From a virus (lineage: Duplodnaviria; Caudoviricetes): a stretch of 64,000 nucleotides of DNA. A model generated the notes under the pieces. That model saw only the letters and a list, made by a program, of their open reading frames with translations, did no database searches and had not been told where the DNA came from. A program made the translations under genes and the position numbers. The DNA lies in IMG/VR virus record IMGVR_UViG_3300031912_000871, positions 23,322-87,321 of that record. One strand, 5' to 3'. This document shows, piece after piece, positions 12,718 to 59,796 of the stretch (the first letter of the stretch is position 1; the number at the start of each line of letters is the position of its first letter).

Positions 12718-12835
12718 AGGGGTCTCCGTTCGTGCGGCGGGTCGCTCACCCGCTGGTCTGCCCCCGACGTCGAGGGCTGGCCACCCAGTCAAGTAACTGA
12801 GTGGTGTGTATGTGTGACAGTACAAACGGTGCAAC

Positions 12836-13324
12836 GTGACTCGCAAGGGGATGCGCGAGCCGGCACAGCCGCATCATGATCGGGTAGCCGGTTGGTACCC
12901 AAGCCCCGCGGAAGGCGGGCCCGTGACACATCAGCCCCAGATCAGCGACGGCGCCCGGCCTCGCCTCGTCATGTCGCAGGCGCTCCAGCTGACCGCCGAA
13001 CTGGCGACCAGCCTCGTCCCGACGTACGCCGACCAGCACGCCGAGTTCGGCGAGCACCTCCAAGCGGCCCGCCGGCTGCGGCTCTGCGCCGAGCGGGTCA
13101 TCGACGCGGCGATCGCCGTCGAGGCCGAGGCAGGGGCAACCGCTGCGGAGATCGCCGCCTGGCTCGCGCTGCCCGTAGAGCAGGTCGAGATGCGCCTGGC
13201 GAACCAACGTGCCCGCGCCGCAGCGATCGACCCGCCCAGCCTCGCCGAGGAGCTGGACGCCTGGTACGCCCGGGTGAGCGGACCAGACGCCCCCTCCAAC
13301 GCCGTCTCAGCCGGTCTGGCCTAA
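12836..13324 (+). CDS. Hypothetical protein with HTH-like segment
   Basis: GATAAEIAAWLALPVEQVEMR; true start may be GTG 12923; convergent with recT. Confidence 0.55.
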   Translation: MTRKGMREPAQPHHDRVAGWYPSPAEGGPVTHQPQISDGARPRLVMSQALQLTAELATSLVPTYADQHAEFGEHLQAARRLRLCAERVIDAAIAVEAEAGATAAEIAAWLALPVEQVEMRLANQRARAAAIDPPSLAEELDAWYARVSGPDAPSNAVSAGLA

Positions 13325-14289
13325 CCGCGCGGCTGCGCCCCGGCCGGCCAGCCAGCCTCGTCGTACGCCGCATCCGGGTTGCCCACCGTCTGGCCGGGCT
13401 CGACGTCCGCCTCGCTGTCACCAGCGTGCTCGGTCACCTCGTCCACCGGCGCGTCCGGCGAGTCGTTGTGCCGTACCCCGCCGTCAGCCGCGATGGCCTG
13501 CCGAGCGGTCGCCGACAGCGGCAACCACTTGCCCAGCTGCTTCCCGACCGTCTTGTGCGCCATCGCCTCGAAGCCATCACCAGCCACACCGCGGTCATCG
13601 AACCAGGGGCCCGACTTGATCCGGACGTAGCGGGCCCGGTGCGCCTTCATCGCATCCCGGTGCACCGGCCGGGTCAGCTGGTAGCCGCCCCCGTTGAGCA
13701 GCGCCCGAGCGTAGTAGAGCACCGGCGCACCCGGCTTGTCGTCCAGCAGCCACGGCTCGTGGACCAGCTCGTCACGGTCCTCGTGCCAGCTCAACCGGAA
13801 GGACGGCAGCTCCTTCTCGTACACCGTCCGGGCGACGATGCCACGCACCAGGCCCGACTGCATGGCCAGCTTGACCAGGCCCTTGTAGCCGAGCACGAAC
13901 GTCGCCTCCCGGCGGCCCCGGTCGTTGTTCCAGAACGGCAGCACGTACGCCTGCCCGGTCGCCCCGCCGACTCGCAGGCCCAGCTGCGCGCAGGTCATCA
14001 CCGCCCCGACGATCGTGCGGGGGTCGCACTCGTCCAGCCCCTTGACCGTCGACAGCGCAGTGACGGTATCGGTGATCAGCTGCACGCCGGTCGGCCCGCC
14101 GTCCGGAGCCGCCCGGTTGAACAGCTCCTCCCGCTGCCTCAGCGCCTCGACGGCACTGCCGTACCCGGACACCTGGACCGCGGCACGCTGGTCCGGCTGC
14201 GCGGGCATGACGGTGCCCTCGACGGCCGGGCCAGGCTGTCCGGCGGTCTGTCCGGCCCGGGCATCTTTCACTCGGTCTCGCAAGCTCAT
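13321..14289 (-). CDS. recT: RecT-family single-strand annealing protein
   Basis: CDPRTIVGAVMTCAQLGL, AYVLPF, LGYKGLVKLAMQSG, FEAMAHKTV; ATG 14289 overlaps exonuclease stop. Confidence 0.92.
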   Translation of the reverse strand: MSLRDRVKDARAGQTAGQPGPAVEGTVMPAQPDQRAAVQVSGYGSAVEALRQREELFNRAAPDGGPTGVQLITDTVTALSTVKGLDECDPRTIVGAVMTCAQLGLRVGGATGQAYVLPFWNNDRGRREATFVLGYKGLVKLAMQSGLVRGIVARTVYEKELPSFRLSWHEDRDELVHEPWLLDDKPGAPVLYYARALLNGGGYQLTRPVHRDAMKAHRARYVRIKSGPWFDDRGVAGDGFEAMAHKTVGKQLGKWLPLSATARQAIAADGGVRHNDSPDAPVDEVTEHAGDSEADVEPGQTVGNPDAAYDEAGWPAGAQPRG

Positions 14290-15302
14290 CTCTTCACCTC
14301 TCGCAACTCGACGTACTCGCAGGGGTTGACGGTGTAACCGGCGCGGGAACGGCGGGCGAGCCGGACCGCACGGCGCCCGCCGAGCCGTCCGTACTCGGCG
14401 CCCGCCTCCACCAGCTGCGCCTTGATCTCGTTCTCCACCTCGTCCAGCTCGACCTTCAGCGCCTTGCGCCGGGCCTTCAGATCCCGGCGGCGGGCGAGCA
14501 GGTCCGCGGTGTGCTCGGCCAGGTCGACTTCCTTGGCCTCGGTGATGCTCGCCAGCGCGGCGACGGCGAGCGCCTCCGACGTGGCCGCCCGCGCGTCGGC
14601 GGGCGGAGCGGTGTCCGGCCACAGGTGGTCGCGGCAGAACTGGGCGGCGGCCTCGCGCAGCTCGCCGATCAGGTCGTCGTCGCGGGCGACGTACTCCACG
14701 ACCGGTTCGTCGCAGCCGTCGACCACGGCCACGACGTACCAGCCGAGCGCCCCGGTCACTCCCATGCACCACTGCGCCTGGGCCTGCGGATAGTCCGGCA
14801 CGGAGCCACCCAGCCACAGCTTCACGTCCGGGGAATGGTCGTCCACCGTCTTGATCTCGACCCCGGCCGGCTCGCCGACGACGAACCGGTCCGGGTTGCA
14901 CAGCATGTAACGGGCGAAGCCGTCCACCTCGAACAGCGGAACCGGATGCCGCCAGGTGCCGGTCACCCCGAGCTGCTTGCCGTGCAGCTCGGCGAACCAA
15001 TCGGCTGCGACCGGCTCCAGCCGGTGCCCCCACGCCAGCCGTCCCTTCGCCGGTGTCGGCGGCAGCCGTCCGGACTTGTCCAGCCACAGCTTGTACGGCG
15101 TCGACCAGGGGGACAGGCTCAGCGCCGCGAGAGCATCACTCCCGCCGAGGCCCGTCAAGCGGATGGCGTGCCAGTCCGGCATCGGCGCGCCGTACGGCAG
15201 CACCTCCACGGCAGGGCCAGATGCCCACCACGGTCTGGAAGGCGGCGCGGGATCGGCCGGCGGTCCGGCACCCACACCATGATCATGGATGACAGCAGTC
15301 AT
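14286..15302 (-). CDS. YqaJ/lambda-exonuclease family protein
   Basis: WHAIRLTGLGGSD, WGHRLEP, NPDR, GVEIKT, YPQAQAQWCMGVTG. Confidence 0.92.
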   Translation of the reverse strand: MTAVIHDHGVGAGPPADPAPPSRPWWASGPAVEVLPYGAPMPDWHAIRLTGLGGSDALAALSLSPWSTPYKLWLDKSGRLPPTPAKGRLAWGHRLEPVAADWFAELHGKQLGVTGTWRHPVPLFEVDGFARYMLCNPDRFVVGEPAGVEIKTVDDHSPDVKLWLGGSVPDYPQAQAQWCMGVTGALGWYVVAVVDGCDEPVVEYVARDDDLIGELREAAAQFCRDHLWPDTAPPADARAATSEALAVAALASITEAKEVDLAEHTADLLARRRDLKARRKALKVELDEVENEIKAQLVEAGAEYGRLGGRRAVRLARRSRAGYTVNPCEYVELREVKR

Positions 15303-15649
15303 CGTCAGGGGTCTCCTCGTCCGGCCCGTCGCTCACGGGCCAAGCGGAACGCGGCCAGGACCATAACGTCCTGACACCCCAAAGTGTAGCAGACATGGAG
15401 CAGGGCCGCGCACCATGTCCGCGGCCCTGCAAAACGGAAGGCCAACCCCGCGAGCTGAGATCGTCATCGCGGGAGCGAACCGCTCAGACCTCGCACGCCG
15501 TCACGGTGGAGACCCCGTTGCCCGAAGGGCTCAAAGGTGCCGCAGACGGACGTGTTTCCCACGCCAGTTGGCCTTTCCACCACCCATGCTACGGCACCCC
15601 CACCGACACAACTACGCTGATCGGACCTGCGACTTGCCGACGAAAGGAC

Positions 15650-16147
15650 GTGCCCGGGTTGAGCGACCCCAGGCGCCTCGCCGAGATCGCCGCCGCCGAC
15701 GACCGCGGATTCCTCATGGAGCTGCTGCGGCACCTGGACCGGCCCACCCCCGACACGATCGCCATGTTCCGCGGTGATGTGCTCCGCCGCCGTACCCGCG
15801 CCGCCGTCGGCGAGCTGCTGAAGATGGCCGACCAGCACGACCGCAAGGGCGCCCCCGAGCAGACCCGCGCGAAGTGGAGAGCAGTCCGGACCGCCGCCCG
15901 CGCCGAGCGAGAAGCCCTCCAGGCCCTCCCACCAGAGGGCGCCGGACCCCGCCGGCGAGCGCTGGAACGCCTCGGCCAGGAACACCCGGACGAGCTGAAG
16001 GCACTGCGTGCCGGCCCGGTCGCCAAGAACGCACGCCGCAGCCTCCTCGAACAGATCGCCGCGCGTCACCCCGTCCGCATGATCGAGCTGCTGCGGGAGG
16101 AGCGGACGCGCGGCGAGTCCAGCGGCGATCAGGACGCCAGGTCGTAG
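15650..16147 (+). CDS. Hypothetical helical basic protein
   Basis: GTG 15650 after GAAAGGA; Arg-rich helical sequence. Confidence 0.55.
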   Translation: MPGLSDPRRLAEIAAADDRGFLMELLRHLDRPTPDTIAMFRGDVLRRRTRAAVGELLKMADQHDRKGAPEQTRAKWRAVRTAARAEREALQALPPEGAGPRRRALERLGQEHPDELKALRAGPVAKNARRSLLEQIAARHPVRMIELLREERTRGESSGDQDARS

Positions 16148-22306: not shown

Positions 22307-23212
22307 CTACAGCCCGCCGTACGTCTTTTGCCAGGCGAATTGCATCTGAGCGGTGCCGCTAACGTCCTGGCCCCGCATCACCACCTCGTACGTGCCGGGT
22401 GGCACGGCAGCGTCGGCCAGACGCACGCCAGTCCGGGTGAGCGCACCACCGAACGACGCGCCGTCGCCGCGCAGCACGCTGCGCCGCCACGGCCGGGTGT
22501 CGATCGTCAGGTGCTGGCCGGCCAGGATCGTTACGTTCAGGGCCATCGTCCACAAGCCCGTGACCTGCACGACCGGGTTGGTCAGCGGCGCCGACACGGC
22601 CCGCAGCGTAATGACCGGCCACGCCGGCAACTCGCCGCCCACCACGATGCCGCCCGGCGCGGCGCCCGTCGGCACGGTCGTCAGCGGGGTTATCAGCGGC
22701 GACACCAAGCCCCCGGACGGCGGCGGCACCAGCGACACCGTTTCCTGCTCGAGCACCGGGTCGTACCAGCAGTCGTCCACGGCGGCGAAGTCACACACCA
22801 CGGGAATCACGCCCTGCCGTGGCTGCTTCGCGGCGGGCGCGAAGCGGCGGGGCCGCCCGTACGCCACCCGGGGCCGCCCGGCGATCACCGTGGACAGCTC
22901 GGCGACCATGCCCGGCACGGAGCGCACCGCGTCGGCCCGCCACGCCAACGCCAGATCCGTCTGCCGCTGCCGGACCGCCAGCTCGCTGTCGCCCAGCACG
23001 AGCAACTCGAAGGTGATCGTCTGCCCGCCCCGGAAGTCCTGGCCGAAGAGCCGGCCGTCGCCGCGCGGTCTGGGCGCGTCGTCGGTGAGCAGTTCCACCG
23101 CCCCGATCTGCGGTTCCGTGGCGAGCATGATCCCGGAGGCGTACGGCCCCCACGTCAGCGACCGGCCCGGGTAGGTCAGGGTCCACTCGTCAGGTGCCTG
23201 CAACGACTCCAC
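22307..23212 (-). CDS. Distal tail (Dit)-like protein
   Basis: Directly after tape measure; AYGRPRRF, GGELPAWPVI, LTIDTRPW motifs. Confidence 0.75.
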   Translation of the reverse strand: MESLQAPDEWTLTYPGRSLTWGPYASGIMLATEPQIGAVELLTDDAPRPRGDGRLFGQDFRGGQTITFELLVLGDSELAVRQRQTDLALAWRADAVRSVPGMVAELSTVIAGRPRVAYGRPRRFAPAAKQPRQGVIPVVCDFAAVDDCWYDPVLEQETVSLVPPPSGGLVSPLITPLTTVPTGAAPGGIVVGGELPAWPVITLRAVSAPLTNPVVQVTGLWTMALNVTILAGQHLTIDTRPWRRSVLRGDGASFGGALTRTGVRLADAAVPPGTYEVVMRGQDVSGTAQMQFAWQKTYGGL

Positions 23213-46951: not shown

Positions 46952-47431
46952 ATGACGACCCCCGACGCGGTGAGCGACCGCGACCTGGAGACCCAGCCGA
47001 TCCCACTGCCGAGCGCCCCCGCGCCCGCCAGCCCTCCGCAACTGAGCCTCGCCAACGCACTGCGGGACACGACCGCCAACCTCTCCGCGTACATCGAGCA
47101 GCGCGCCCATGAGATCGCCGCGCCCCGGATCGCCAAGATCGAGCAGGAAGCCGCCGCGCGGGTCGCCGCGGCCGAGAGCGAGCGCGATGTCAACGCCCGC
47201 CGGTTCAATGACGTCGAGGTGGAGTTCCGCCGCCAGTACAAGGCCCTGGAGACTCGCCGCGACGAGTTGGCCTGGGCCGCTCGATACCTGCCCGCCGGAC
47301 TGCGGGGCTTCGTCCTCGGCGATGACACGCGGCGACACGTCTACCCGCAGCCCCGAGAGTCGTTCGCCGCCGCCGTCGACCAGGCCGCCGCCGGGCTCGG
47401 CCTCACCCCGTACGCCGAGGAGAGCCAGTGA
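46952..47431 (+). CDS. Coiled-coil hypothetical protein
   Basis: First gene of recombinase operon; TAGGCT hexamer upstream. Confidence 0.65.
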   Translation: MTTPDAVSDRDLETQPIPLPSAPAPASPPQLSLANALRDTTANLSAYIEQRAHEIAAPRIAKIEQEAAARVAAAESERDVNARRFNDVEVEFRRQYKALETRRDELAWAARYLPAGLRGFVLGDDTRRHVYPQPRESFAAAVDQAAAGLGLTPYAEESQ

Positions 47432-48968: not shown

Positions 48969-48979
48969 CCGTCGCAGAA

Positions 48980-49011
48980 CGAGCCGGCACCCGGGAACGG
49001 GTGCCGGCTCG
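48980..49011. terminator. Hairpin between convergent genes
   Basis: CGAGCCGGCACCCG-ggaa-CGGGTGCCGGCTCG perfect 14-bp stem. Confidence 0.75.
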
Positions 49012-49016
49012 CGGTG

Positions 49017-49319
49017 TCAGCGGAGGGCTTCAGGCTGGCTGAGGGCCTTCACAGCCTCGGCCAGCGACTGCGCCGACGACTGCTGCTCGGTCAGCGCCCT
49101 GCGGAGCAGCGCCGCCGCCCTGCCGCGCCCAGCAGCGTCAGTGGCATCGGCCAGCTCCCCGATGCTGTTCCCCAGAGCAATCGCTGTGGCCCGGATCAGC
49201 GCGAGCAGCACGTCGGGATGGTCGACTTGAACGTCACCTCGGAGGCACGCGGCCAACTCGAACGCCGACTCGCGCATCTGCATCGCAGGGCCGGCGTACC
49301 CCGGGACCGGTTCTGGCAT
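49017..49319 (-). CDS. Hypothetical protein
   Basis: 100 aa helical ORF at end of early operon. Confidence 0.55.
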   Translation of the reverse strand: MPEPVPGYAGPAMQMRESAFELAACLRGDVQVDHPDVLLALIRATAIALGNSIGELADATDAAGRGRAAALLRRALTEQQSSAQSLAEAVKALSQPEALR

Positions 49320-49363
49320 AGGTCTATCGTGCCAGCGGCCAGCCGCCGGTGCCCGCCCGACGA

Positions 49364-49891
49364 TCAGACGTTGAAGCCACGGCCCTTCAGGTACGCGACC
49401 AAGCGGTCGTACGAGCGTCGGGCCTCGCCCAGGAATCGACGCGCACCGCGCAGCAACTCTCGCTGGAATCGTTCGTCGGCGGGTCGTCCCGTCGAGTCCG
49501 GCATGGAAAGCAGCTGATAGCCGATCAAGCCGGACGCGGCCATAGCTGCTTGTCCGGCCGCCTTCAGTGGCAGCACCTCGGCGCCGTCATCCATCGTGGT
49601 GTCACGCAGCTGGAACGCCATCACGCGGAGCCGCGCGTCCATCAGGCGAGCGGCGCCCAGGCCATCGTTGTCAAGCTGACGGGCGTACCCCTCGGCGAAC
49701 TGCTCGATCTCGTGTACGTCGCTGGCGTGGTCGTGCAGCCCGGCCTCCACGGAGGCGGTCAGCTGTCCGAGCAGAGCAGGCAGGTCGTCCGGGGTGGGAT
49801 CGTCCAGCATGACCGTCGGCGTGCCGAGCGCAGCGAGGGCCTGAAGCACACGGTCGGCCGTGAGGGGGCCGCCGTGGCGAGTCGTCGTCAT
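49364..49891 (-). CDS. Hypothetical protein
   Basis: ATG overlaps upstream stop (ATGA). Confidence 0.65.
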   Translation of the reverse strand: MTTTRHGGPLTADRVLQALAALGTPTVMLDDPTPDDLPALLGQLTASVEAGLHDHASDVHEIEQFAEGYARQLDNDGLGAARLMDARLRVMAFQLRDTTMDDGAEVLPLKAAGQAAMAASGLIGYQLLSMPDSTGRPADERFQRELLRGARRFLGEARRSYDRLVAYLKGRGFNV

Positions 49892-51114
49892 CGGGTTAGT
49901 TCGTCCTTTCGCGGTACGAAGGGTTCGGCGAGCACCGGAACGTCCGGATACAGCCGCTGGTAGGCGGCGCGGTGTTCGGCGACGTGGGCGCGGCCGGCGT
50001 CGGTGAGGCACACCAGCGCGACGTTGGCTGGCAGGTTGAGATGCACGCCAGGACGACGGCCCGTCTGAACGTCGAGGACCTCGACCAAGGCGCCACCCGG
50101 ATACGCCTTCAACCTGTTCACCACGGCCGTCGACCGGGCGGTCTTCTTCACGTGCGGCAGCGTCATCCCCGGCGGGATCGCTGCCACCTCAGCTGGCATC
50201 TCAACGCGCTCTCCCGGCGACACCCACCGGTTGTAGCTGTCGTACTCCTGGATGATCCGCCGCAGTAGTGGGCACCGGCCGCCGGACTCCAGTCCGGCCA
50301 GCTCGGCCAGAACCCGCCAGTCCGGCTCCCGGACCAGGTGCTTCGGCCGGCGCGTCGGCGAGTGATCGGCCAGGCCGGTGTGCGCGCCGTCGACCGGCTC
50401 CGGATCGGCGGCCTTGACGTCGGGGTGCAGTTCCCGGTAACAGGCGTGGTGCAGGTCGTAGTGCCGGCGCCCGGCCGGGGTGATCCGTACCCACCAGTCC
50501 CCGCGACCGCCCGGGTGGAACTCCTCGATGTACGGCCCGTCGCGCTGGTCGTCGCGAAGCTTCTGCAGTGCCCGCCACGTCGGGGTGCGCTCAGACAGCG
50601 GGATTTCGCGCGGTTGCAGACCCATCGTCATGCCGTCCTCGCCAGCCCGGTACAGCTTGGCCAGGGACTCCCACAACCACTCGGAGAGCAGACCGGCCGG
50701 CTTCTTCGCTGGCGCGGCGGCGGCCGGAAGCCCCGCGCGGGCGGCTGCCCGGCCGGGTGTGGTGAGGGTGACGTACACGCACTTCACCACCATGATGCCC
50801 AGGTCCGCCCAGCCGTGCTCGGTCTTGACCAGGCCGCGCCGTCGCAGAGCCGCGAGCGTCGCCCCGGCACCGGAATCGTGCTCGCCGGCGGCCCGGAGAA
50901 CGTCCTGGACGGTGGTGTACCCGAACAGCGTCCGGGGCAGCTCCAGGGAGAACCGCAGCTTCCGCCACTCTGCCGCCGGCGGAACCTCGATCCGGGCGAG
51001 CCGCTTCCCGGCGATCTCCTTCTCCCGCTCCTGGTCGGCGTTGTAGATCGCCGTCAGGTACGTGCGCTGCCGGTCGTTCAGACCCGCCCACGCGGCAGCG
51101 GCTTTACCGGTCAC
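49888..51114 (-). CDS. Protein with three wHTH-like repeats
   Basis: Repeated wing motif: YVTLTTPGRAAA, WVRITPAGRRHY, LVCLTDAGRAHV. Confidence 0.7.
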   Translation of the reverse strand: MTGKAAAAWAGLNDRQRTYLTAIYNADQEREKEIAGKRLARIEVPPAAEWRKLRFSLELPRTLFGYTTVQDVLRAAGEHDSGAGATLAALRRRGLVKTEHGWADLGIMVVKCVYVTLTTPGRAAARAGLPAAAAPAKKPAGLLSEWLWESLAKLYRAGEDGMTMGLQPREIPLSERTPTWRALQKLRDDQRDGPYIEEFHPGGRGDWWVRITPAGRRHYDLHHACYRELHPDVKAADPEPVDGAHTGLADHSPTRRPKHLVREPDWRVLAELAGLESGGRCPLLRRIIQEYDSYNRWVSPGERVEMPAEVAAIPPGMTLPHVKKTARSTAVVNRLKAYPGGALVEVLDVQTGRRPGVHLNLPANVALVCLTDAGRAHVAEHRAAYQRLYPDVPVLAEPFVPRKDELTR

Positions 51115-51413
51115 CGCGCCGGCCGCTTCCTCGCGATCGTGCTTCGATCCCGGACCAGCTGATGGGTGAGGAACCCGTACCCGATCACCAGGGAGGCCGC
51201 CGCGGTGGCCCAGGGCAGCCACAGTGGAGACGGGCCGGGCAGCAGCTGCACGACGGCGCCGGCCGCTGACACGGCGGTGATGGCGGCGACCATGGCCACG
51301 GCGGCCCGGGTCACTCGGCCGCGGCGGCGCAGGTGCACGACCGCGCCGGTGAGGAGGATCCCGGGGGCGAGCCCCATGACCGCGATGGCGAAGCCGAACC
51401 CGTCCATGATCAC
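51111..51413 (-). CDS. Small membrane protein
   Basis: Three hydrophobic helices; overlaps both neighbours. Confidence 0.6.
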   Translation of the reverse strand: MIMDGFGFAIAVMGLAPGILLTGAVVHLRRRGRVTRAAVAMVAAITAVSAAGAVVQLLPGPSPLWLPWATAAASLVIGYGFLTHQLVRDRSTIARKRPAR

Positions 51414-51772
51414 TGCTCGGACTCCCGCCGCGCCGCCTCCGCCAGCTGGGCGTGCGTGGCCTTGATCTGCTGGACCAGCCCGTGCATGGTGGGGTCCACC
51501 GGCGTACCCGTGGTCAACCCGGTCGGGTCGACGCTGGCCGGCGGGTAGGCGAGTCCGCAGCCAGCGCACCCGAGGACCACCGGGTCGGTCTCCTGTGGGC
51601 TGGCGATCCGCCAGGCGCAGAGGACGTCGTGGATGACGCGGGGCACGATCCGGAGCCGGTAGCCATCCACCTCGTCGTGGCGGAGCACGGGCAGGCGCGT
51701 CGTGCCGGCGGCGATCGAGTCGGCCAGGGCGCGCAGTTCAGCGGAGGCGGTCGCGGGGTCGATGGGCTTCAT
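51410..51772 (-). CDS. Hypothetical protein
   Basis: Overlap chain; CAGC motif. Confidence 0.6.
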   Translation of the reverse strand: MKPIDPATASAELRALADSIAAGTTRLPVLRHDEVDGYRLRIVPRVIHDVLCAWRIASPQETDPVVLGCAGCGLAYPPASVDPTGLTTGTPVDPTMHGLVQQIKATHAQLAEAARRESEQ

Positions 51773-52305
51773 CAGTAGTCATCCCCCATGCGCCGCTTGT
51801 AGGCGGCGACGGCGGCGCGGAGCCGTTCACACGTCTCGGCGTGCCCGCTCTCCTGGTCCTCGGGGTGCGGGTCGTACGGGCCGTGGTCCTTGATGCCTTG
51901 GCCGCAGGCACCGCAGTCGTAGTAGACGTTCTGGTCGCTGAAGCTGTAGCCGAGGGCGTACTCGAACGCGGCCACGGCCAGGTCGTAGTCGCCACGCTGC
52001 TCGGGCAGATCCAGCACCTTGCCGATTTCCGCCCAGGTCGCGCCGGCGCCGCGCGCCTTCGTGATGGCGCTGTGAACCTGCTGGTCGGCGCGACCACGCA
52101 GCCAGACGGCCGCCTCCAGCCGGGTCAGCGGCCGGACCGTAGGTTCGGTGGTCTTCGCGCCTACGAAGATCGGCGCGTTGGCGACGTGGGCCGGATCCTC
52201 CAGCATCAAGGCAACCCGGTGCACCGCGTTGTGCGCGGCGCTCATCATCTCGCTCTGCGCATTCTGCCGGCGTTCCTGCGCCGCCGGGTCCTCGTGCTTT
52301 CGCAT
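51772..52305 (-). CDS. HTH-like protein with C-terminal Zn-ribbon
   Basis: ARGAGATWAEIGKVL; CGAC...H..TC. Confidence 0.65.
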   Translation of the reverse strand: MRKHEDPAAQERRQNAQSEMMSAAHNAVHRVALMLEDPAHVANAPIFVGAKTTEPTVRPLTRLEAAVWLRGRADQQVHSAITKARGAGATWAEIGKVLDLPEQRGDYDLAVAAFEYALGYSFSDQNVYYDCGACGQGIKDHGPYDPHPEDQESGHAETCERLRAAVAAYKRRMGDDY

Positions 52306-52379
52306 CGGGGTCTCCTTCTGTTCGCTCTCGGTGAGGATAGGCCGCCGGGCCGACACAGGGTCGGCCCGGCGGGCGCGGG

Positions 52380-52985
52380 TCAGGGTTGTGGGCGGGCGAC
52401 GGCGGCCCACAGGTCGCCTTCTTCGCGGCGGATGATCAGCCGGTGGTTGAGGTACACATCCCAGCCGAAGTTGGTCATCGTGTACTCGCGTCCACGGCCG
52501 TGGTCAACGAGGCCACCCTCGGCGAGGATGCCCTTGTCGCGGAGGGCGTGGATGGTCTGCCGGTAGGCGGCGTCGCCGTGGAAGTGGCCGGTCGATGTGG
52601 TGATCTTGCCGCCGTTGCAGGCGGCCCGCTCGATCTCCTCGGCCTGGTTCTCGGACAGCCGTACGCCTCTCGGCGTGGCTGGCTTCGTGGCCTTGGTGGG
52701 GATGGGCTTGGCGGCGGCTTCGGCCTCGGCGAGCAGGTCGGCGGGCGCGGTCCACGGTTCGCGGCTGTAGAGCACGACAAGTCCGCCGTACCGGTGGCGC
52801 TGTTCGGTGGTCCAGTCAGCGGTCCGGTCCCTGCGTGCCTTGTGGGTGGCGACCTGGGCGTAGTGCCCGCCGCCGGTGGACACGCACGAACCGAACTTGA
52901 CCTTGCATTTGGGGCAGGGCACTGCCTGGTCGGCCATCCAGTAGGCGCGTGATCGCTGGTAGTCGGTCAGCTCGACGGCCGTCAT
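52380..52985 (-). CDS. Zinc-finger plus wHTH protein
   Basis: CPKCKVKFGSC...HKARR; YRQTIHALRDKGIL...YTMTNFG. Confidence 0.7.
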   Translation of the reverse strand: MTAVELTDYQRSRAYWMADQAVPCPKCKVKFGSCVSTGGGHYAQVATHKARRDRTADWTTEQRHRYGGLVVLYSREPWTAPADLLAEAEAAAKPIPTKATKPATPRGVRLSENQAEEIERAACNGGKITTSTGHFHGDAAYRQTIHALRDKGILAEGGLVDHGRGREYTMTNFGWDVYLNHRLIIRREEGDLWAAVARPQP

Positions 52986-53101
52986 CAGGGTCTCCGTCCC
53001 GTGCGGGTCGCTCACCCGCACACCCCAAAGTGTAGCAGAACTATGCCGGTAGGGGGTGCCCGCCGCCGGGCCGACATCGAAGCCGACCCGGCGGCGCGGG
53101 G

Positions 53102-53857
53102 TCAGCGGTCCAGCAGGGTCAGGTTCATGGCCGTAAGCCACTGCTCCAGCAGGGGCACAACGTCTGCGCCGGGCAGCTCGCGGTGCTCGGCCTTCACAGC
53201 GGCCAGTTGCTCGCGGAGAAGCAGGATGGCCTGGCCTTCCCGGGTGGTCGGGTCAGGCGTCCACCGCCGGTCCAAGGGCTGCCGGTCACGGATCGCTGCC
53301 TGCTCGGCGTACGCGGCGTGCTGCTTCGCCAGATCCTTCAGCAGCTCGGCGAGTTTGACGTTCAGCAGGTCGACCTGGTTGGCGTGCATGCGCATCCGTT
53401 CGGGGGCGAGGTGCCACCGGTGGAGCGCGATCAGCTCCTGGTGGTCGTCGCGGCCGAGCCAATGCCGGACCAGCGCGTGGACGATCTGCCCGGTGTAGCG
53501 GCGGGTGCCGTCGGGCACGCTGCGGATGCCGCTGTCCCGCTGGAGGGACAGCCAGCCGTACGGGCTGGCCGGGTTGATGGTGGCCGGGCTGAAGCGGGAC
53601 GCGCCGTACAGCGTGACGCGGTTGACGACGGGCCGGTCGGGCAACTGCTCGTAGCGGACCCAGCGGTGTTCGCCCTCGACGCGGCCGAAGGTTACCTGCA
53701 CCCTGTCGTGGCCGTCGTAGATGTGTGCGTAGGGGTCAGGTTCGATGGTGAACGCGCCGATGCCGTGGACCTGGTAGACGCAGCGGCCGTACTGATCGGG
53801 TGTGGCGGTGAAGGTGATCGACCGGCGGGCGGTCAGCTGGATGGTGGTGCTGTCCAA
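53102..53857 (-). CDS. Hypothetical early protein
   Basis: RBS GGAGACCCC, leader-hairpin variant upstream. Confidence 0.65.
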   Translation of the reverse strand: MDSTTIQLTARRSITFTATPDQYGRCVYQVHGIGAFTIEPDPYAHIYDGHDRVQVTFGRVEGEHRWVRYEQLPDRPVVNRVTLYGASRFSPATINPASPYGWLSLQRDSGIRSVPDGTRRYTGQIVHALVRHWLGRDDHQELIALHRWHLAPERMRMHANQVDLLNVKLAELLKDLAKQHAAYAEQAAIRDRQPLDRRWTPDPTTREGQAILLLREQLAAVKAEHRELPGADVVPLLEQWLTAMNLTLLDR

Positions 53858-53916
53858 GAGGGGTCTCCCGAAGGTGGCCCGGGGGCGGGGTCGCTCTCCC
53901 CGCCCCCGGTGGGTGG

Positions 53917-54315
53917 TCAGCGGTCGGTGGTGCGGGCCTCGGCCAGCGCGCGGCGGGCGTCAGCGCCGCGCACGGCGGCCTTACGCATCATCGTGAGCAG
54001 CCACGCCGCGCCGACGCTCTCGTGCACGATGTAGCCTGCGCCCATCGCGATGCCGGTCTGCACGGCCAGGGGCATCGTGTCGGAGGACAGGAGCACGATG
54101 TCGCCGCAGTGCTCGGCGTTCGGCAGCGCCGAGGTGAGCACGGTGGCAACCATGTCGGAGGCCACGACGACCAGCGGCGCGGACATCCACCCGTCGGCGG
54201 CGGACCCGCTGGTGTCAGCGGTGGCCACGGCCGCGCCGGTGTGCTCGGCGTAGACGGCGAACTCCTGCTTGCGCCGGTCGTCGCCGGTGAGGAGGAGAAC
54301 GTCGGGGAGTTCCAT
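53917..54315 (-). CDS. Stand-alone Ssd (Rv3660c)-like CheY-fold domain
   Basis: VLLLTGD...GWMSAPLVVVASD...IVLL...GIAMGAGYIV...AAWL resembles the N-terminal domain of septum-site-determining protein. Confidence 0.6.
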   Translation of the reverse strand: MELPDVLLLTGDDRRKQEFAVYAEHTGAAVATADTSGSAADGWMSAPLVVVASDMVATVLTSALPNAEHCGDIVLLSSDTMPLAVQTGIAMGAGYIVHESVGAAWLLTMMRKAAVRGADARRALAEARTTDR

Positions 54316-54439
54316 AGGGGTCTCCAATCGATCGGCGGGTCGCTCACCCGCTTACACCCCAAAGTGTAGCACATATTCGCCTATAGATGCAGGTCAGGGG
54401 CCGGGTTACTACCCAGCCCCTGCTGCCCCGCTCCCCCGG

Positions 54440-55243
54440 TCAGGCCGCGTCGCGGATCTGCACCACCCGCTCGTCGGTGAGCCGCGCCAACCGCGCCAGC
54501 TCCGCCGGACCCATGCTCGCCGACAGCTCCCGGATCGCCCCGTCCCGCGCCCGCGTCAGCGCGGCCCGCAGCGCGGCGAGCCTGCGCACCTCACCGGCGC
54601 GCTCCGCCACCAGCTCCGGGTCGGCCTCCGAACGGGGCGCCGACGCCTGGTGCGGGTAGATGTCCCGCACGGCGGCGCCGGCCAGCTGCGCGGCCTGCCG
54701 GTTCGACCAGCCGGCGTGCTTCGTCAACGCCGCGGCGGCACGGTTGCGGGCCTCCACCGCGTCGGCGTACGCCCGGTTCGTGGTCTCCAGCTGACCGGCG
54801 GCGGCCTCCAGGCGCGCGATCGGCACGTCGGGCAGGTCCAGCACCACGTCCGCGTCCGGGCTCGCGGCCACGGCCGGCTCGTTGGCGAGCGCGCGGGCCT
54901 GCTTGTAGAGCGCCCACAGCTCGCGCACGTCGACCTGCGCGATTTTGAACGCCTCCTCGGCGCGTCCGGCGCTCACCCGCCGCGGCGGGGTGACCTTCTC
55001 GATGGCCTCGCGCACCTGGGCGACCTTGTTGGGTCGGCCGTGGATCTCGGTGCACAGCTGGGTCCAGGACCAGCCGTGGTGGAAGTGCAGAGCGGCGGCG
55101 TGCCGGTCGCGGACACCGAGGGCCTTGCGGTGCTCGGCGCGCAGCTCACCGGCGAGGATCCGGCCGGTGATCGCGCGGTCCGGTCCGGCCCGCTCGGCCG
55201 CTTCGGCGAGCCGTGCTCGGTACGTGTGAATGGCGGGGTTCAT
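54440..55243 (-). CDS. Helical protein with repeated HTH-like units
   Basis: GWSWTQLC, GWSNRQAAQLAG, MGPAELARLARLTDERVVQIR. Confidence 0.65.
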   Translation of the reverse strand: MNPAIHTYRARLAEAAERAGPDRAITGRILAGELRAEHRKALGVRDRHAAALHFHHGWSWTQLCTEIHGRPNKVAQVREAIEKVTPPRRVSAGRAEEAFKIAQVDVRELWALYKQARALANEPAVAASPDADVVLDLPDVPIARLEAAAGQLETTNRAYADAVEARNRAAAALTKHAGWSNRQAAQLAGAAVRDIYPHQASAPRSEADPELVAERAGEVRRLAALRAALTRARDGAIRELSASMGPAELARLARLTDERVVQIRDAA

Positions 55244-55351
55244 GGGGGTCTCCAAGTTCGCGGGGCGCCGGGGGTGGCTGTGTTCAGGTGTTGCCAGGTC
55301 AACGGCGGGGCGGGGCGGGGCACATGACCACCCACCCCACCCCTTACCGTA

Positions 55352-55540
55352 TCAGAGGTTAACGGGGGTTCGGTTGGTCGGCGTGCAGTTCGGGCACGAC
55401 CGGCGGGCGGCGCCGACCACCTTGATCTCCGGGATCGTGCTGGCCGGCCGCGACGGCTTCGCGTGCATCCGGGGCGGCCCGTCGGCCAGCTCGGTGAGCA
55501 GCTGCGCGGCTTCGCGTGCAGCAGTCGCGATGGCGTCCAT
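55352..55540 (-). CDS. Small hypothetical protein
   Basis: First gene after early cassette; CPNC. Confidence 0.5.
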   Translation of the reverse strand: MDAIATAAREAAQLLTELADGPPRMHAKPSRPASTIPEIKVVGAARRSCPNCTPTNRTPVNL

Positions 55541-55664
55541 GAGGTCTCCGTTCGTCCGGAACGGGTCGCTCACCCGCTCACACCCCTCAATGTAGCGGTC
55601 ATTAACGCGGGAGGGCAAGCGCGCCGGCCAGATTGCGCCCGCCGCGCCCGCCGCTCCACCGCCG

Positions 55665-55796
55665 CTACCAGAACAGCCTGGTGATGATGTCCACCGCCGT
55701 CACGATGGCCCTGATCAGCGTCAGCATCCAATCCGCGCCGGGACGCTGACGCCTGCCTGGTCGCCGCCGCCGGCTACTTCTATTTGACTTGGCCAT
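55665..55796 (-). CDS. 43-aa basic/hydrophobic peptide
   Basis: Below ORF-track cutoff; AAGGAGG RBS; MAKSNRSSRRRRPGRRQRPGADWMLTLIRAIVTAVDIITRLFW. Confidence 0.6.
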   Translation of the reverse strand: MAKSNRSSRRRRPGRRQRPGADWMLTLIRAIVTAVDIITRLFW

Positions 55797-55932
55797 GAGT
55801 GCCTCCTTGGTGAGTGGGCACGCTTCTCGCGCCTCTTACTCACGTATCGGCACTCACGAAGCCGGAATACAGCATGGGTGACGCATGATCTGCGTCACCC
55901 ATGCCGGGAACGGGCCGGGCCCGCCGGAGCGG

Positions 55933-56307
55933 TCAGAACAGCGCGCCCACCGGGACGGCCACCGGCTCGGCCGTGGTGGTCGACGGGTAGAGGAACGACC
56001 GCATGTCGGCCAGCAGCTCGGCCTCCCACCGCTCGTCGGCCTCCCGGTCCGCCTCCGGGGTGAGCGCGTCCATGACCCGCTGAAGGATCGCCTCCAGGTA
56101 GAGGCCACGGGCGGCGCAGTCGTCGGCGGCCACGAACCGGAGCATGTCGGTGATGGTGGCGCGGGCCTCGTCGGCGCTGTGGTTGAGGCGGGCGCGGACC
56201 GGGGCGAGCACCTCGCGGGCCTCGCGGCCCCAGCCCTGCATGACGGAGCTGGCGAGGCCGTCGTTGAGGATCTCGGCGGCCCGGGCGAACATCGTGTCGG
56301 TGATCAT
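55933..56307 (-). CDS. Hypothetical early protein
   Basis: First gene after early cassette. Confidence 0.65.
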   Translation of the reverse strand: MITDTMFARAAEILNDGLASSVMQGWGREAREVLAPVRARLNHSADEARATITDMLRFVAADDCAARGLYLEAILQRVMDALTPEADREADERWEAELLADMRSFLYPSTTTAEPVAVPVGALF

Positions 56308-56334
56308 GGGGTCTCCCTCAGTTGAGCGGGTCGC

Positions 56335-56772
56335 TCACCCGCTTACACCCCAAAGTGTAGCACAGATTAGATACTGCGGCACTGGTGGGCCGCCCCTGAC
56401 GCAGACGGGCTCGGGCGTGCGGGGCCGGTTCGCCCGCTCCATGAGGACCCGGCGGTGGCACACGTCCCGCTCCCCCGGCTCGGGCAGCGGGCAGTAGCAG
56501 GCCAGGTCCCGGCCGACCAGCTGGTGCAGGTGTGCGAGCAGGACCACCCGGGTCCGCTCCTGCGGCGGCTTCGGCACGCCGAGCCCGCAGTCCAGCCACG
56601 CGGCGAACATCTCCACCGCCGCCTCTCGGGCGGTCTCGGGAACGGCGATGCCGCACGCCACGACGTCCGCGGCGGTGAACGGGTTCCCGAACCGGCTGGG
56701 CCGGGTCACGATCACCGCGCCGTCCGGCTTCCGCCAGCCCTTGCGGCGGAACCGCTGGATCGGCTCAGGCAT
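56335..56772 (-). CDS. DUF4326 protein
   Basis: IQRFRRKGWRKPDGAVIVTRPSRFGNPF...LVGRDLACYC...CH. Confidence 0.85.
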   Translation of the reverse strand: MPEPIQRFRRKGWRKPDGAVIVTRPSRFGNPFTAADVVACGIAVPETAREAAVEMFAAWLDCGLGVPKPPQERTRVVLLAHLHQLVGRDLACYCPLPEPGERDVCHRRVLMERANRPRTPEPVCVRGGPPVPQYLICATLWGVSG

Positions 56773-57049
56773 CGCTGCTCCCCTCGGGTCGCCGGCAGCC
56801 GTCGCAGCGGGAGCCGGGCAGGGCGTTGATGGGCCGGTAGCAGCCGGCGCAGGCCACCAGCTCGTAACCGGCCGGTCGGGACGCGGCCGGCGCGGCCGGC
56901 GCCGGGAGGTCCGGGGCGGGTCGGCCTTCCCGGGCGGCGGCGAGGGCCTCCCGGACGAGGGCGCCGCCCCGGGTGGCCCTCTGGCGGGCTTCGTCGGGGG
57001 TGCGCGGCTCGCGGATGGCCAGTTCCCGCTCCCACGGTCGGTGCCTCAC
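56765..57049 (-). CDS. Hypothetical protein with C-terminal CxxC...CxxC
   Basis: GTGA overlap; CAGC...CDGC. Confidence 0.55.
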   Translation of the reverse strand: MRHRPWERELAIREPRTPDEARQRATRGGALVREALAAAREGRPAPDLPAPAAPAASRPAGYELVACAGCYRPINALPGSRCDGCRRPEGSSDA

Positions 57050-58380
57050 CGGACGGCCGCCAGCAGCGACGGGTACTCCTCGATGACCTCGCCGTCCAGC
57101 TCGTTGCGGTGGCGCGGACCGCGCTGGAAGGTCCAGGACTCCCGGGTGTCGCCGCAGAACCTCAGCGTCCAGGCGGGGTCGTTCAGGACCAGCTGGGTCG
57201 GCGCGGGATGCCAGTCGCCCCACTGCTTGAAGAAGAACTTCGTGCCGGCGCTGTTCCGGCACTGGTCGCGAAGCGAGCGCGCCCAGTCGGGGTGCATCGG
57301 CCGACAGCCGGGGCCGGTTTCGCCGCCGACGACGACCCAGTGCAGGCCGAGCTGGTCGCGGACGTGCCGCTCGGTGAAGGAGGTGTAGCCCATGCTGCCG
57401 TCGGGCAGCGCGAGGCGACCGATGTTGTTCCAGGCGTGGATGTACCGGCCGGTGTGCCGGTCGGCGGGAGAGCCGGCCGGGCGCATGCTCGGGTGGGTCG
57501 TCCACTCCTGTCCGAAGGCGGGCGCACCGTTGTCGTGGGCGTTCTGCAGCCAGCGGCGCGGGCTCCTGCCGATGCTCTCCGACCAGAACGACTCGATCTG
57601 CTGGCGGGCGTCGGCCGGCACCCAGTCCGGCCAGGTCCACTCGTGCCAGGTGGCCGGGGCATCGGCCGAGTCGGCCGGGGTGCGGGGTGCCATCCAGGCG
57701 GTCAGGTCGACCGGGCCAAGGAGCGGTTCGGCGGAGATCCAGCGGACGGCCGCCGGGGTGTCCAGCAGCGCCGGGATGCGCAGGTTGGCGGTGGCCTGGT
57801 CCTCGACGCTGACCCCGATCCACACGTTCGGCAGCGGCGGCATCGGCTCGCCATCTGGCCGGTCCGTGATCAGCTTGATCGCGGCATCGATCCGCTCGGC
57901 CGGCACCCGCCTGTCTTCGGCCGGCGGCTCGGCGAAGGTCCGGACCCAGTCCCACACCAGCCGGGCGAACTCGGCCGACCGCAGGACCGACCGCATCCGG
58001 CCGTGCCGCTTGGTGAGCAGCTGGTAATGGTGCTGCGGGGTCAGCGCCATGACGGCGAACGCCTCGGCGATCACGCCGATCGGCACGTCAGCGTGGAACA
58101 GGTCGCTCATGGAGTTGACGAAGATCCGGCGCGGCTTCCGCCACGTCAGCGGCTTGTGGAGCCGGTCCTCGACCACCCGGACCTGCCCGGTCCAGTCGAG
58201 CCGGCCGGTCTCGTTCCGCTCGACCAGCCCGGCGTACGCGGCGGCGATCTTCGGGTTCGGGTTGCTCTTGCGGATGTTCGCCGTGGTGATGGCGTAGCAG
58301 CCGTCGCAGCCCTTGGTGACGCGCTCGCAGCCGAGGAGGAAGTTCCACGTCTCGTCGGTCCAGCCGATGTTACTGCTCAC
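57046..58380 (-). CDS. Gp37/Gp68 (DUF5131) family protein with internal insertion
   Basis: MSSNIGWTDETWN, GCERVTKGCDGCYA, RIFVNSMSDLFH, WIGVSVEDQ, SAEPLLGPV, WVVVGGETG, FFFKQWG. Confidence 0.9.
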   Translation of the reverse strand: MSSNIGWTDETWNFLLGCERVTKGCDGCYAITTANIRKSNPNPKIAAAYAGLVERNETGRLDWTGQVRVVEDRLHKPLTWRKPRRIFVNSMSDLFHADVPIGVIAEAFAVMALTPQHHYQLLTKRHGRMRSVLRSAEFARLVWDWVRTFAEPPAEDRRVPAERIDAAIKLITDRPDGEPMPPLPNVWIGVSVEDQATANLRIPALLDTPAAVRWISAEPLLGPVDLTAWMAPRTPADSADAPATWHEWTWPDWVPADARQQIESFWSESIGRSPRRWLQNAHDNGAPAFGQEWTTHPSMRPAGSPADRHTGRYIHAWNNIGRLALPDGSMGYTSFTERHVRDQLGLHWVVVGGETGPGCRPMHPDWARSLRDQCRNSAGTKFFFKQWGDWHPAPTQLVLNDPAWTLRFCGDTRESWTFQRGPRHRNELDGEVIEEYPSLLAAVR

Positions 58381-58642
58381 GCGATGCTCCTTGGGGGAAG
58401 GTGATGTGGAAGCCGTGCCCGAGCGGGCACGGGCGGACGGTGGGTGCCGCGCCGGTCGCGGCGGCGATCGACGCGGCGACCTGGACGGCGATGGACTCGC
58501 TGCCGAACCGGGCGACGCCGCGGCAGGGGCCGCAGCGGCGGGGCCGCTGGTGGCGGCGGGCGGTCCGGAGGCGGGGGCGGCAGCAGCCGGACAGGCCAGC
58601 ACGGCAGCGGCGGCACCGGCCGACGAGGACGGTGTGAGCCAC
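58370..58642 (-). CDS. Cys-rich hypothetical protein
   Basis: RBS GGAGAAACCC; CRRC, CGPC, RPCPLGHGFHIT. Confidence 0.6.
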   Translation of the reverse strand: MAHTVLVGRCRRCRAGLSGCCRPRLRTARRHQRPRRCGPCRGVARFGSESIAVQVAASIAAATGAAPTVRPCPLGHGFHITFPQGASREQ

Positions 58643-58658
58643 GGGTTTCTCCGATCGG

Positions 58659-58844
58659 TCAGGTGGCGCACGGGCAGAGGACAACGCGGGCGGGTTTGCC
58701 GCCTTCGGTGGTTCCGGTCCACACACGCCAGCCGGCGGCCCGGGCGGACTCCTCGCTGGAGCGCCGCCGGGCGCCGCATTGCTGGCAGGTCAGTCGCCGT
58801 CGTGGGGCGGCGGGCGGTGGACGGAACAGGGCTGGGGTGTGCAC
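58659..58844 (-). CDS. Small Zn-ribbon-like protein
   Basis: CQQC...AAGWRV...LCPC. Confidence 0.5.
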   Translation of the reverse strand: MHTPALFRPPPAAPRRRLTCQQCGARRRSSEESARAAGWRVWTGTTEGGKPARVVLCPCAT

Positions 58845-58849
58845 ACCCC

Positions 58850-59386
58850 TCAGCCGGGCTGCTGCTGGTGGCGCTTGCCGTAGAGCCGGGCGTGCATGTC
58901 TTCGGTCCACCGGTGCGGGGGCAGCCAGTTGTAGAGCGGGGTGAGGTCACCTCCGGCGACGCGGGCGGCGTCGTCCAGGGCGAGGGCCTGAAGGTTGAGG
59001 TTGTCGGCGATGACCGGGTGGTCGCCCTTGATGCCCCGGGCCAGTTCGCGGCGGCCGTCGGCGGCGGCGCGGAACGTCTCGGCGAGGACGGCGGTACCGG
59101 TGACCTCGGTGAGCAGCTGCATGCCGGCGTCGAGGGTCTCGCGCGCGGTGGCGGCCTCGGGGCTGGTCGGGTCGAGCCACACGATGGCGGTGGGCTGGGT
59201 GCCGCCGTGGGAGTGGATGTGCTCGGCGTCGGCGACGGTCCGCCACACGACGGTGGACGGCCGGTCGGACAGCCACTGCACGAGGGCGCGGCCTCCGGGG
59301 AGGGTGGCGCCGTAGGCGACGGTCCCGGTGCCGGACATGCCGGTCGGGTCGGCGTCGCGGCGCAGCGCGAACAGGCGGTCGATCAT
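58850..59386 (-). CDS. Hypothetical actinophage-type early protein
   Basis: FALRRDADPTGMSGTGTVAYG...HIHSHGG. Confidence 0.7.
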   Translation of the reverse strand: MIDRLFALRRDADPTGMSGTGTVAYGATLPGGRALVQWLSDRPSTVVWRTVADAEHIHSHGGTQPTAIVWLDPTSPEAATARETLDAGMQLLTEVTGTAVLAETFRAAADGRRELARGIKGDHPVIADNLNLQALALDDAARVAGGDLTPLYNWLPPHRWTEDMHARLYGKRHQQQPG

Positions 59387-59796
59387 GACGCTCCGATCAG
59401 GTCTGGGAGACGACGACGCAGGGCGGTCATCGCGGCCGAGGCTTTCCCACCAGCCCGCCAGCACCGCAGTCCCTGCCACTGCCGACGGGGGCTCCACCAG
59501 CGGCGGCGATGACCGCCCTGCGCGTGACAGCGGGCCCGCTGGTACGGGCGCGCTGTTGGAGGTCCAGGTCCGCCGCTCGGGCGGTGGTGGTGTGGCTCAC
59601 CGGGGCCTCCTCGCGGTGCCGGGTCGCTCACCCGATACCGATGTATGCGATTCTATGCGACACCCCAAGGTGTGGCAAGCCTTCGGGCCGGGTGCCTTGA
59701 CGGTGACCCCGTCCGGCCGCCCGCCGGGACGCAGCGGGCAGCCGGTGGGCGGGCAGTGCGCACAGACCTCCGCCTTGCCCGCCCCGACGTGTTCCA

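Follow-up and report, generated by a model that had tools for sequence, protein, structure and literature searches.

A hairpin with a constant GAGCGA loop before the non-virion genes of a Micromonospora phage-like element looks like an undescribed RNA tag

Introduction

What is recognised in a hairpin that recurs before one gene after another, with a stem that changes and a loop that does not? The question is raised by a stretch of 64,000 nucleotides (nt), called the window here, which comprises bases 23322-87321 of the 87.3-kb IMG/VR record IMGVR_UViG_3300031912_000871 (Duplodnaviria; Caudoviricetes). The whole record is referred to as G000. It has 72% G+C, is 95% complete according to CheckV and carries nearly all its genes on the minus strand. 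Unless the genome is named, positions are those of the window. An earlier note on this DNA described ten minus-strand leader hairpins with an invariant GAGCG loop, compared them with boxB of phage lambda and preferred recognition of RNA to a DNA operator.

The hairpin is a strand-specific structure with a covarying stem, an invariant GAGCGA loop and a set position between the start region or the preceding stop codon and the ribosome-binding site. From its sequence it looks like an undescribed RNA tag which gives one factor joint control of some 25 non-virion genes. The reading that we favour, with a probability of about 0.5, is that a sense-strand hairpin in leaders and between cistrons tags the messages of non-virion genes for one shared reader, which recognises a specific sequence, and probably increases their stability as well. 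From the sequences we infer the action as RNA and the binding of a factor; the identity of this factor and the direction of its effect are likewise proposals.

Two sets of relatives support the comparisons. G005, the 86.7-kb contig NZ_JBEYIX010000021 of Micromonospora sp. NPDC006766, is collinear with G000 and ~80% identical to it along 53 kb, with a circular permutation between the two. This identifies Micromonospora as the host genus and shows that the element is complete at ~87 kb. The second set is a distant lineage (G001-G004), found by an exact-word scan of IMG/VR for contigs with multiple copies. Its virion proteins share 30-65% identity with their counterparts in the window, and the non-virion proteins in common are limited to a DUF5131 protein, a lysin, a recombinase and a few small proteins. 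In addition, four fragments (L208, L209, L253 and L025) encode terminases with 48-57% identity.

Occurrence of the hairpin

All ten hairpins were found where the earlier note had placed them. Their core 15-mer, CGGGTGAGCGACCCG, occurs 10 times in the window when up to two mismatches are allowed, against 1.47 expected, and none of 100 shuffled sequences reached 10. The whole record contains 14 exact copies of the core, every one on the minus strand, and about 25 hairpins once stem variants are admitted. Throughout the genome, 20 of the 23 TGAGCGA heptamers on the minus strand lie in stems of at least 4 base pairs (bp; range 4-13), as does one of the five on the plus strand. Among all genomic hairpins with a 6-bp stem, GAGCG is the commonest loop (17 copies; the runner-up has 5). 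The window also holds further members: three on the plus strand, one over a start codon at 15659 and one with a 9-nt loop.

About 30 copies of the same hairpin are retained in the distant lineage, despite different -10 boxes, different ribosome-binding sites and almost no early proteins in common. On the four fragments, GAGCGA loops are carried by unrelated stems, for instance the 15-bp GCCCTGCCAAGCCCC in L208 and TGCCGG and CCGGGG in L253; TGGTCGC in G001 is a further unrelated stem with the same loop. A covariance model, a check suggested in the earlier note, was built and applied to the Micromonospora genome, where 150 of ~16,000 first-look candidates were scored: 24 of the 32 matches, including the 18 best, concentrate on the element's own contig. 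By this comparison of sequences, the hairpin does not appear to serve the host's own genes and seems confined to the element.

Wider searches gave few further members. A scan of genome contigs with a 17-mer returned, among the matches listed, single copies only, mostly due to chance; the Micromonospora element was found through one of them, L096. In a second viral scan, with the stem variant CCGGTGAGCGACCGG, 59 single matches provide an estimate of the background and one contig, L253, is a real member. Rfam 15 gave no match in the window at the gathering score, and BLAST of one cassette against isolated phages gave none either. A family of GAGCGA hairpins is absent from Streptomyces phage Gilgamesh, the closest isolate (terminase 50%), as its hexamers number 42 and 38 on the two strands and their stems are at chance level. 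Lastly, literature searches on phiC31 operators and Streptomyces phage stem-loops yielded nothing relevant, and the papers searched contained nothing that resembles a GAGCGA-loop hairpin.

A frozen loop on covarying stems

The invariance claimed in the earlier note for a GAGCG loop stands for the word GAGCGA. It does not extend to the preceding T, which is replaced by A at 53879 and elsewhere by C, A or G, with its partner A unchanged. Rare loop variants also exist (GGGCGA, GAGTGA, CGGAGCGA in one lineage and some loops of 9 nt). As the closing T varies, the invariant element is GAGCGA displayed in a loop of 7-9 nt and not a strict pentaloop.

Stems are mostly 5-9 bp long and the longest reach 12-15 bp. 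The variants quoted in the earlier note as examples of maintained pairing are correct (GGCCCGT/ACGGGCC at 15321, a 10-bp stem at 45501 and a 12-bp G/C stem at 53879). In an ungapped alignment of 52 copies, which were picked for at least four pairs so that the inner pairs are partly selected, 86.5% of the cells are paired, against 72% after shuffling and 36-46% when the partner is slid. Both sides change in eight of nine pairs, and none of 500 shuffles matched the observed values. Two divergent copies that MAFFT had misplaced are left out of alignment A2.

The comparison of 15 orthologous pairs in G000 and G005 is free of this selection bias. GAGCGA is changed at none of 90 positions and the variable first loop base in 2 of 15, with the 25-nt flanks diverging at 21-23%. 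In the full stems, 95 pairs are unchanged and 11 have changed on both sides and are still Watson-Crick; a further six switch between Watson-Crick and G.U, two become A.C and one becomes another mismatch. Pairing is thus kept in 17 of the 20 changed pairs.

A constant loop might also be matched by an RNA. In such a scheme an antisense small RNA with a UCGCUC loop would kiss the hairpin loops and shut early genes off, as does the C4 RNA of P1/P7. Sense-strand UCGCUC does occur in non-coding gaps of the virion module of both G000 and G001; however, no such site lies in a conserved hairpin loop, and six bases confer little specificity. We regard this scheme as highly improbable.

Sense-strand pairing or a DNA operator

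GAGCGA lies on the sense strand of the following gene in every copy, including four plus-strand genes in G001. Wobbles were counted at internal pairs with two good pairs on each side, since a count at fixed stem positions was uninformative. At 75 non-redundant sites the internal non-Watson-Crick pairs comprise 10 G.U, 2 A.C and 6 other mismatches. A wobble of the opposite strand would appear as A.C, and the excess of G.U points to pairing of the sense strand, as for RNA.

These observations bear directly on the possibility that the sites are double-stranded DNA operators. A repressor would then bind the near-palindrome GCGGGT-GAGCG-ACCCGC at +1 of the early promoters and block polymerase at the copies that lack a promoter. 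The predicted position, +1 to +20, is that of a classical operator, and the modal 17-mer keeps its sequence from lineage to lineage. Furthermore, the element is temperate, with tyrosine recombinases, and its Cro/C1-type helix-turn-helix gene is kept in the distant lineage. However, roughly one copy in three has arms of quite another sequence, with both sides changed in every case, and no half-site is thus shared by all copies. The invariant part is the asymmetric centre, orientation follows the gene throughout, the wobbles favour one strand, and no copy adjoins this helix-turn-helix gene.

Known operators of temperate actinophages sharpen this comparison. The inverted repeats of phiC31 (CIRs) are repressor operators with a comparable layout, intergenic and in some cases within long stems. 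Both CIRs and the stoperators of L5 resemble the hairpins in their many intergenic copies, at or downstream of early promoters, in temperate actinophages. A first suspicion that the hairpins were CIRs was ruled out, as the phiC31 repeat is a different, perfect 16-bp palindrome (CTACTCACGTGAGTAG). CIRs have conserved arms, whereas the hairpins combine an asymmetric centre with varying arms. Stoperators are orientation-dependent sites in double-stranded DNA without a dyad, and the CIR is likewise a double-stranded site. The orientation rule of stoperators is seen in the hairpins too, whereas the covarying dyad of the hairpins is foreign to them.

Since stems covary, the loop is frozen, orientation is bound to the gene and wobbles favour the sense strand, a one-stranded structure with a sequence-specific loop fits better than the classical operator of a dimer, and we consider a DNA operator unlikely. 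The preference of the earlier note for recognition of RNA is therefore supported by the covarying stems, the frozen loop, the orientation, the wobbles and the position in 5' leaders; its analogy with boxB is not.

Promoter geometry and the predicted leader

A TAnnnT hexamer ends 4-12 nt before the stem in 37 of ~52 copies and is preceded by TG in 21. It lies 13-16 nt from the loop, and standard sigma-70 geometry, applied to the position of the hexamer, places the predicted start site at the base of the stem. By its sequence, the promoter box TGCTACACT of the earlier note corresponds to an extended -10, after which TTGGGGTGT forms the start region. This box is indeed absent at 12737, 45501 and 53879. 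Copies without a promoter lie 10-20 nt after a stop codon and usually have long G/C stems (10-13 bp).

The ribosome-binding site GGAGACCCC that had been described after the hairpin is seen at each of the ten copies, and the Shine-Dalgarno sequence (SD) starts 0-10 nt after the stem. In predicted leader folds the hairpin is dominant (-11 to -36 kcal/mol, z -1.0 to -3.4) and the SD is mostly open. The predicted folds also show that the conserved word GGGAGACCCC (53855-53870, 56305-56320 and other ribosome-binding sites) can form a 3-bp mini-hairpin of its own, GGG-AGA-CCC, which holds the SD.

The distant lineage uses TATCAT, TAGACT, TACCAT and others as -10 boxes and GGAGGGAG as SD. In its early cassettes (L079, which is G001 40001-60000; e.g. 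15853-15900, minus) a strong G/C hairpin resembling a terminator ends at the -10, in the place of a -35. To judge from this arrangement, these promoters look as if they rely on a TGn-extended -10, with each small gene forming its own transcription unit.

The genes behind hairpins are recombination, regulatory and orphan genes, and none belongs to the virion operon. A second promoter class precedes the virion genes: (A/G)GGACG(C/T)(A/T)A, followed 12-13 nt on by TAnnGT. Its nine copies are all on the minus strand, at 17490, 27968, 28689, 30662, 31917, 35365 and 39864 of the window and at 16238 and 17270 of the genome. This class probably marks late transcription by a factor that the element encodes. 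A possible activator is a 163-residue protein (12068-12559, minus) that joins a WhiB domain to a helix-turn-helix at its C terminus.

The layout of the cassettes recalls the PeSLs of the T4-type phages RB49 and phi1. These occur in many copies before small, non-essential early genes that differ between relatives; their stem-loops, most of which are situated inside the promoter or upstream of it, were shown to act as terminators, and no constant loop is described for them (PMC2839356). By analogy, the hairpin could belong to a mobile cassette without a dedicated reader, which attenuates or terminates upstream transcription, stabilises messages and offers a recombination joint for the shuffling of early genes. 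The order of stop codon, sigma-70-type promoter, stem-loop, SD and start agrees with that of PeSLs (PMC2839356), and promoter-less copies are G/C stems of 10-13 bp right behind stop codons. Furthermore, the genes between hairpins differ almost entirely between G000 and G001, and the cassettes persist. However, such a cassette leaves unexplained why the loop is unchanged amid drifting stems and flanks and why it is constant on unrelated stems. No U-tract follows the stems, and the G001 cassettes already own a separate terminator-like hairpin upstream of the -10. Although PeSLs share the combination of promoter, stem-loop and SD before early reading frames, the hairpin here lies in the predicted transcribed leader, downstream of the -10, with a fixed loop. 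A cassette of this kind is, in our judgement, quite an unlikely explanation.

Other leader elements share single features. The SAS/ESAS repeats of cluster K mycobacteriophages contain a ribosome-binding site before start codons, with an inverted repeat upstream, in one orientation; ESAS has conserved 17-bp arms around a variable spacer of 4-13 bp, and its function was still unknown in 2025 (PMC3203893; PMC12699233). The ribosome-binding site GGAGACCCC is comparable to SAS, whereas the pattern of the hairpin is the reverse of that of ESAS: the centre is fixed and the arms vary with compensation.

Stabiliser hairpins, as in the leaders of ompA and T7 phi10, place a stem at the extreme 5' end with a strong SD next to it, and their loop sequence is free. 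The hairpin shares this stem and SD, whereas a specific loop is found in the hairpin only. RNase III sites of the T7 type need a stem of ~20 bp, which exceeds the stems described here.

A candidate reader and the boxB analogy

Divergent from the RecE hairpin gene, a plus-strand gene at 15659-16147 encodes an arginine-rich, all-helical orphan protein of 162 amino acids (aa). Both lineages have this protein (42% identity to G003 3229-3708), which is true of few other non-virion proteins. Eight relatives were found among 5.8 billion proteins, the nearest in Micromonospora echinospora, and none in isolated phages or IMG/VR. The family has 25 invariant columns, among them ten arginines and one tryptophan. 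A confident AlphaFold model of the protein (pLDDT 86) is all-helical; Foldseek of this model against the PDB gave no hit at E<=0.001, and VIA-align gave a best Z of 8.3, to generic helical repeats only.

The surroundings of the gene link it to the hairpin. On three small contigs with relatives of 53-76% identity, the gene lies each time divergently beside a GAGCGA hairpin gene. An identical 15-mer, GCGGGAGCGAACCGC, with a 4-bp stem and the loop GAGCGAA, occurs amid differing flanks in G000, G005, L278, L279 and L280. It lies 131-277 nt upstream of the gene and on its strand; in the window it is found at 15469-15483 (plus), 190 nt upstream. In addition, the UUG start codon is embedded in UUGAGCGA in G000, G005, L279 and L280. 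In L280 this start-codon motif sits in a clean 5-bp hairpin, and in G003 the motif is found in the 5' leader. The pattern is circumstantial: it fits an RNA-binding regulator which controls its own translation, and the protein could equally bind DNA.

An arginine-rich candidate invites comparison with lambda, where boxB, a small hairpin with a GNRA-like purine loop, is read by an arginine-rich peptide in antitermination and is present, together with boxA, at two sites per genome. An N-like protein would bind the nascent hairpin and make RNA polymerase resistant to terminators. The hairpin does resemble boxB in its short stem, its U-A closing pair and its loop of five bases, and in its place in early leaders. 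In lambda the nutL site precedes the N gene, and N reportedly represses its own translation by way of this site; the motif hairpin upstream of the candidate's own gene is similarly placed. Moreover, the terminator-like hairpin before each G001-lineage cassette could be a target for read-through. Against this, no boxA-like GCTCTT or GTTCTTT was found within 60 nt of any window copy, and a loop of GAGCG, whose fourth base is C and fifth base G, is unable to take up the GNRA-like fold; many loops have 7-9 nt. The candidate has no homology to N, and the Rfam scan returned no match. With ~25 sites per genome, most of them with their own -10, processive antitermination is less needed, and the tight spacing of the SD points to translation. 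The analogy drawn in the earlier note is thus not borne out, and we view N-like antitermination as a very doubtful explanation.

Proposed mechanism and points against it

On the favoured reading of an RNA tag, an extended -10 of the host sigma-70 type (TGnTAnnnT), where a promoter is present, ends 4-12 nt before the stem, so that the transcript would start at or within a few bases of it, pass through the hairpin and reach a strong SD 0-10 nt later. Within operons, where its stem is often longer, the hairpin separates a stop codon from the ribosome-binding site that follows. Pairing is all that is required of the stem, and the loop has to be GAGCGA. A stem at the 5' end or between cistrons could shield the message from end-dependent decay, and the fixed loop could dock one sequence-specific factor which switches translation or stability of the early and middle genes jointly. 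Virion genes use the other promoter class and have no hairpin. As the factor, the 162-aa protein encoded by the element is the best candidate; it may also control its own translation.

A bolder form of this proposal goes further. The 162-aa protein would read the GAGCGA loops on some 25 messages, silence or license all non-virion genes post-transcriptionally from a divergent position of the lysogeny type, and control its own translation through the start codon embedded in the motif. We hold this form to be rather unlikely.

Several observations weigh against the tag. The bias of G.U over A.C consists of 12 events, some of them paralogous and not all independent, and an internal C.A is present in one of the plus-strand copies of G001. 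Even between distant lineages the most frequent stem, GCGGGT/ACCCGC, keeps its sequence, which a model in which any stem suffices does not demand. Start sites and transcription of the hairpins are deduced from promoter geometry. The 162-aa protein belongs to no Pfam family, and neither its fold nor its family is recognisable; it was not found on the hairpin-bearing partial contigs L208, L209, L253 and L025. Lastly, the 131-aa Cro/C1-type helix-turn-helix protein (40479-40874) is also conserved between the lineages, could read DNA and is a natural candidate for a repressor at the DNA level; beside its gene, neither a hairpin nor a similar dyad was found.

Individual copies in the window

The ten original copies are all on the minus strand. 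At 59619-59635, TCGGG-TGAGCGA-CCCGG lies downstream of TTGCCA-17-TAGAAT, with the SD at 59609-59612 and GTG at 59600, and its G005 orthologue shows a C/T change in the stem. The promoter box reported at 59660-59676 is better read as the spacer of this ordinary promoter. The copy AGCGGG-TGAGCGA-CCCGCT (56325-56343), with the extended -10 TGCTACACT (hexamer 56354-56359), precedes the ATG at 56307 of a 124-aa gene and is the minimum-energy element of the predicted leader (z -2.75). GAGCGGG-TGAGCGA-CCCGTTC (55559-55579; -10 TACATT at 55589-55594; ATG 55540) contains an internal G.U, and the wobble is relocated in the orthologue (GAGTGGG/CCCGCTC). GCGGG-TGAGCGA-CCCGC at 54335-54351, with -10 TACACT (54363-54368), serves a 132-aa gene (ATG 54315).

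Directly after a TGA stop and without a promoter, the 12-bp G/C hairpin CCGGGGGCGGGG-AGAGCGA-CCCCGCCCCCGG (53879-53909) precedes a 251-aa gene (TTG 53857); it folds with -35.8 kcal/mol (z -3.3), and its stem length differs in the orthologue. Two copies share the left arm TGTGCGGG and the -10 TACACT. The first, TGTGCGGG-TGAGCGA-CCCGCACG (53000-53022; -10 at 53029-53034), precedes a 201-aa gene with a weak zinc-finger match (ATG 52985), and the second, TGTGCGGG-TGAGCGA-CCCGCGCA (45737-45759; -10 at 45766-45771), a 63-aa gene (GTG 45721). The 10-bp hairpin GGCGCCGGGT-GAGCG-ACCCGGCGCC (45501-45525) follows a TAG stop, lacks a promoter and lies before a 112-aa gene with weak winged-helix matches (ATG 45481); in the orthologue its stem is CGGCCGGG/CCTGGCCG.

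The flipped hairpin TTGGCCCG-TGAGCGA-CGGGCCGG (15321-15343) precedes the ATG at 15302 of the RecE-like exonuclease, and an early -10 box (15374-15390) is found 30 nt upstream. Its stem type, CCCG/CGGG, recurs in G003, G005 and L278-L280. GCGGG-TGAGCGA-CCCGC at 12737-12753, without a promoter box, is followed by GTG 12717 of a small open reading frame (ORF) and then by the WhiB-helix-turn-helix gene.

Further members are more varied. On the plus strand, GTGTGCGAG-TGGGCGA-CTCGTATGC (11606-11630) carries the loop variant GGGCGA, has no ribosome-binding site after it and shows a compensatory G-C to A-T change in G005. At least 30 nt after this hairpin are identical in the 80%-identical relative, and no ribosome-binding site or ORF start follows; the segment 11606-11665 (plus) may be a small RNA or a long leader. 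The status of CGCGG-TGAGCGA-CCGCG (46966-46982, plus), in a plus-strand recombinase cluster, is uncertain, as no start codon lies at the usual distance. On the minus strand, ACCGG-GTGAGCGAA-CCGGT (9156-9174), with a 9-nt loop, lies upstream of an XRE/DUF5753 regulator gene, and a weak 4-bp copy, GGCT-GAGCG-AGCC (622-634), precedes GAGGAGACCCC and GTG 601.

The element and its other genes

G000 is a temperate Micromonospora phage-like element with tyrosine recombinases. The closest relative of one of its proteins is located on a 7.16-Mb M. echinospora contig, and the element may occur both free and integrated. The virion module includes the large terminase (42748-44481), portal (37298-39637), major head protein (33869-35224) and tape measure (23190-26498), and its tail genes extend down to 17945. 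RecE/RecT-like genes lie at 13321-15302, and the window also encodes a tyrosine recombinase and many small orphan genes. No tRNA was detected in a search of the window. A 53-aa 'conserved ORF', P0001, was rejected as an antisense reading of a surface-protein gene.

Some further genes deserve mention. The Cro/C1-type helix-turn-helix gene is followed by a DUF6545 gene, and the pair (40479-42758, plus) is placed between portal and terminase, opposite to the virion operon; it is kept in the distant lineage and is likely the immunity module of the element. The genes of an MFS transporter and the XRE/DUF5753 regulator (6711-9047, minus) form a cargo that is commoner on actinomycete chromosomes or plasmids than in phages. 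The DUF5131 (Gp37/Gp68) protein (57046-58380, minus; 444 aa, ~200 aa beyond the length of the Pfam model) is among the few non-virion proteins common to the distant lineage and is also present in many mycobacteriophages.

Implications

Since 2011, repeated motifs have been known in actinophage leaders, SAS/ESAS among them, and no function has been assigned to them. The hairpin described here offers an unusually clean case, with an invariant loop of six bases, many natural compensatory mutants, a cultured host genus and a concrete candidate reader; in a Micromonospora isolate the element sits on its own contig. If one factor reads the loop, a temperate phage-plasmid would co-regulate dozens of independently transcribed genes at the RNA level, and the hairpin and its protein would form a compact, portable pair for gene control in high-GC actinomycetes. 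If the bolder proposal for the 162-aa protein were true, this system would be a post-transcriptional counterpart of the phage immunity repressor.

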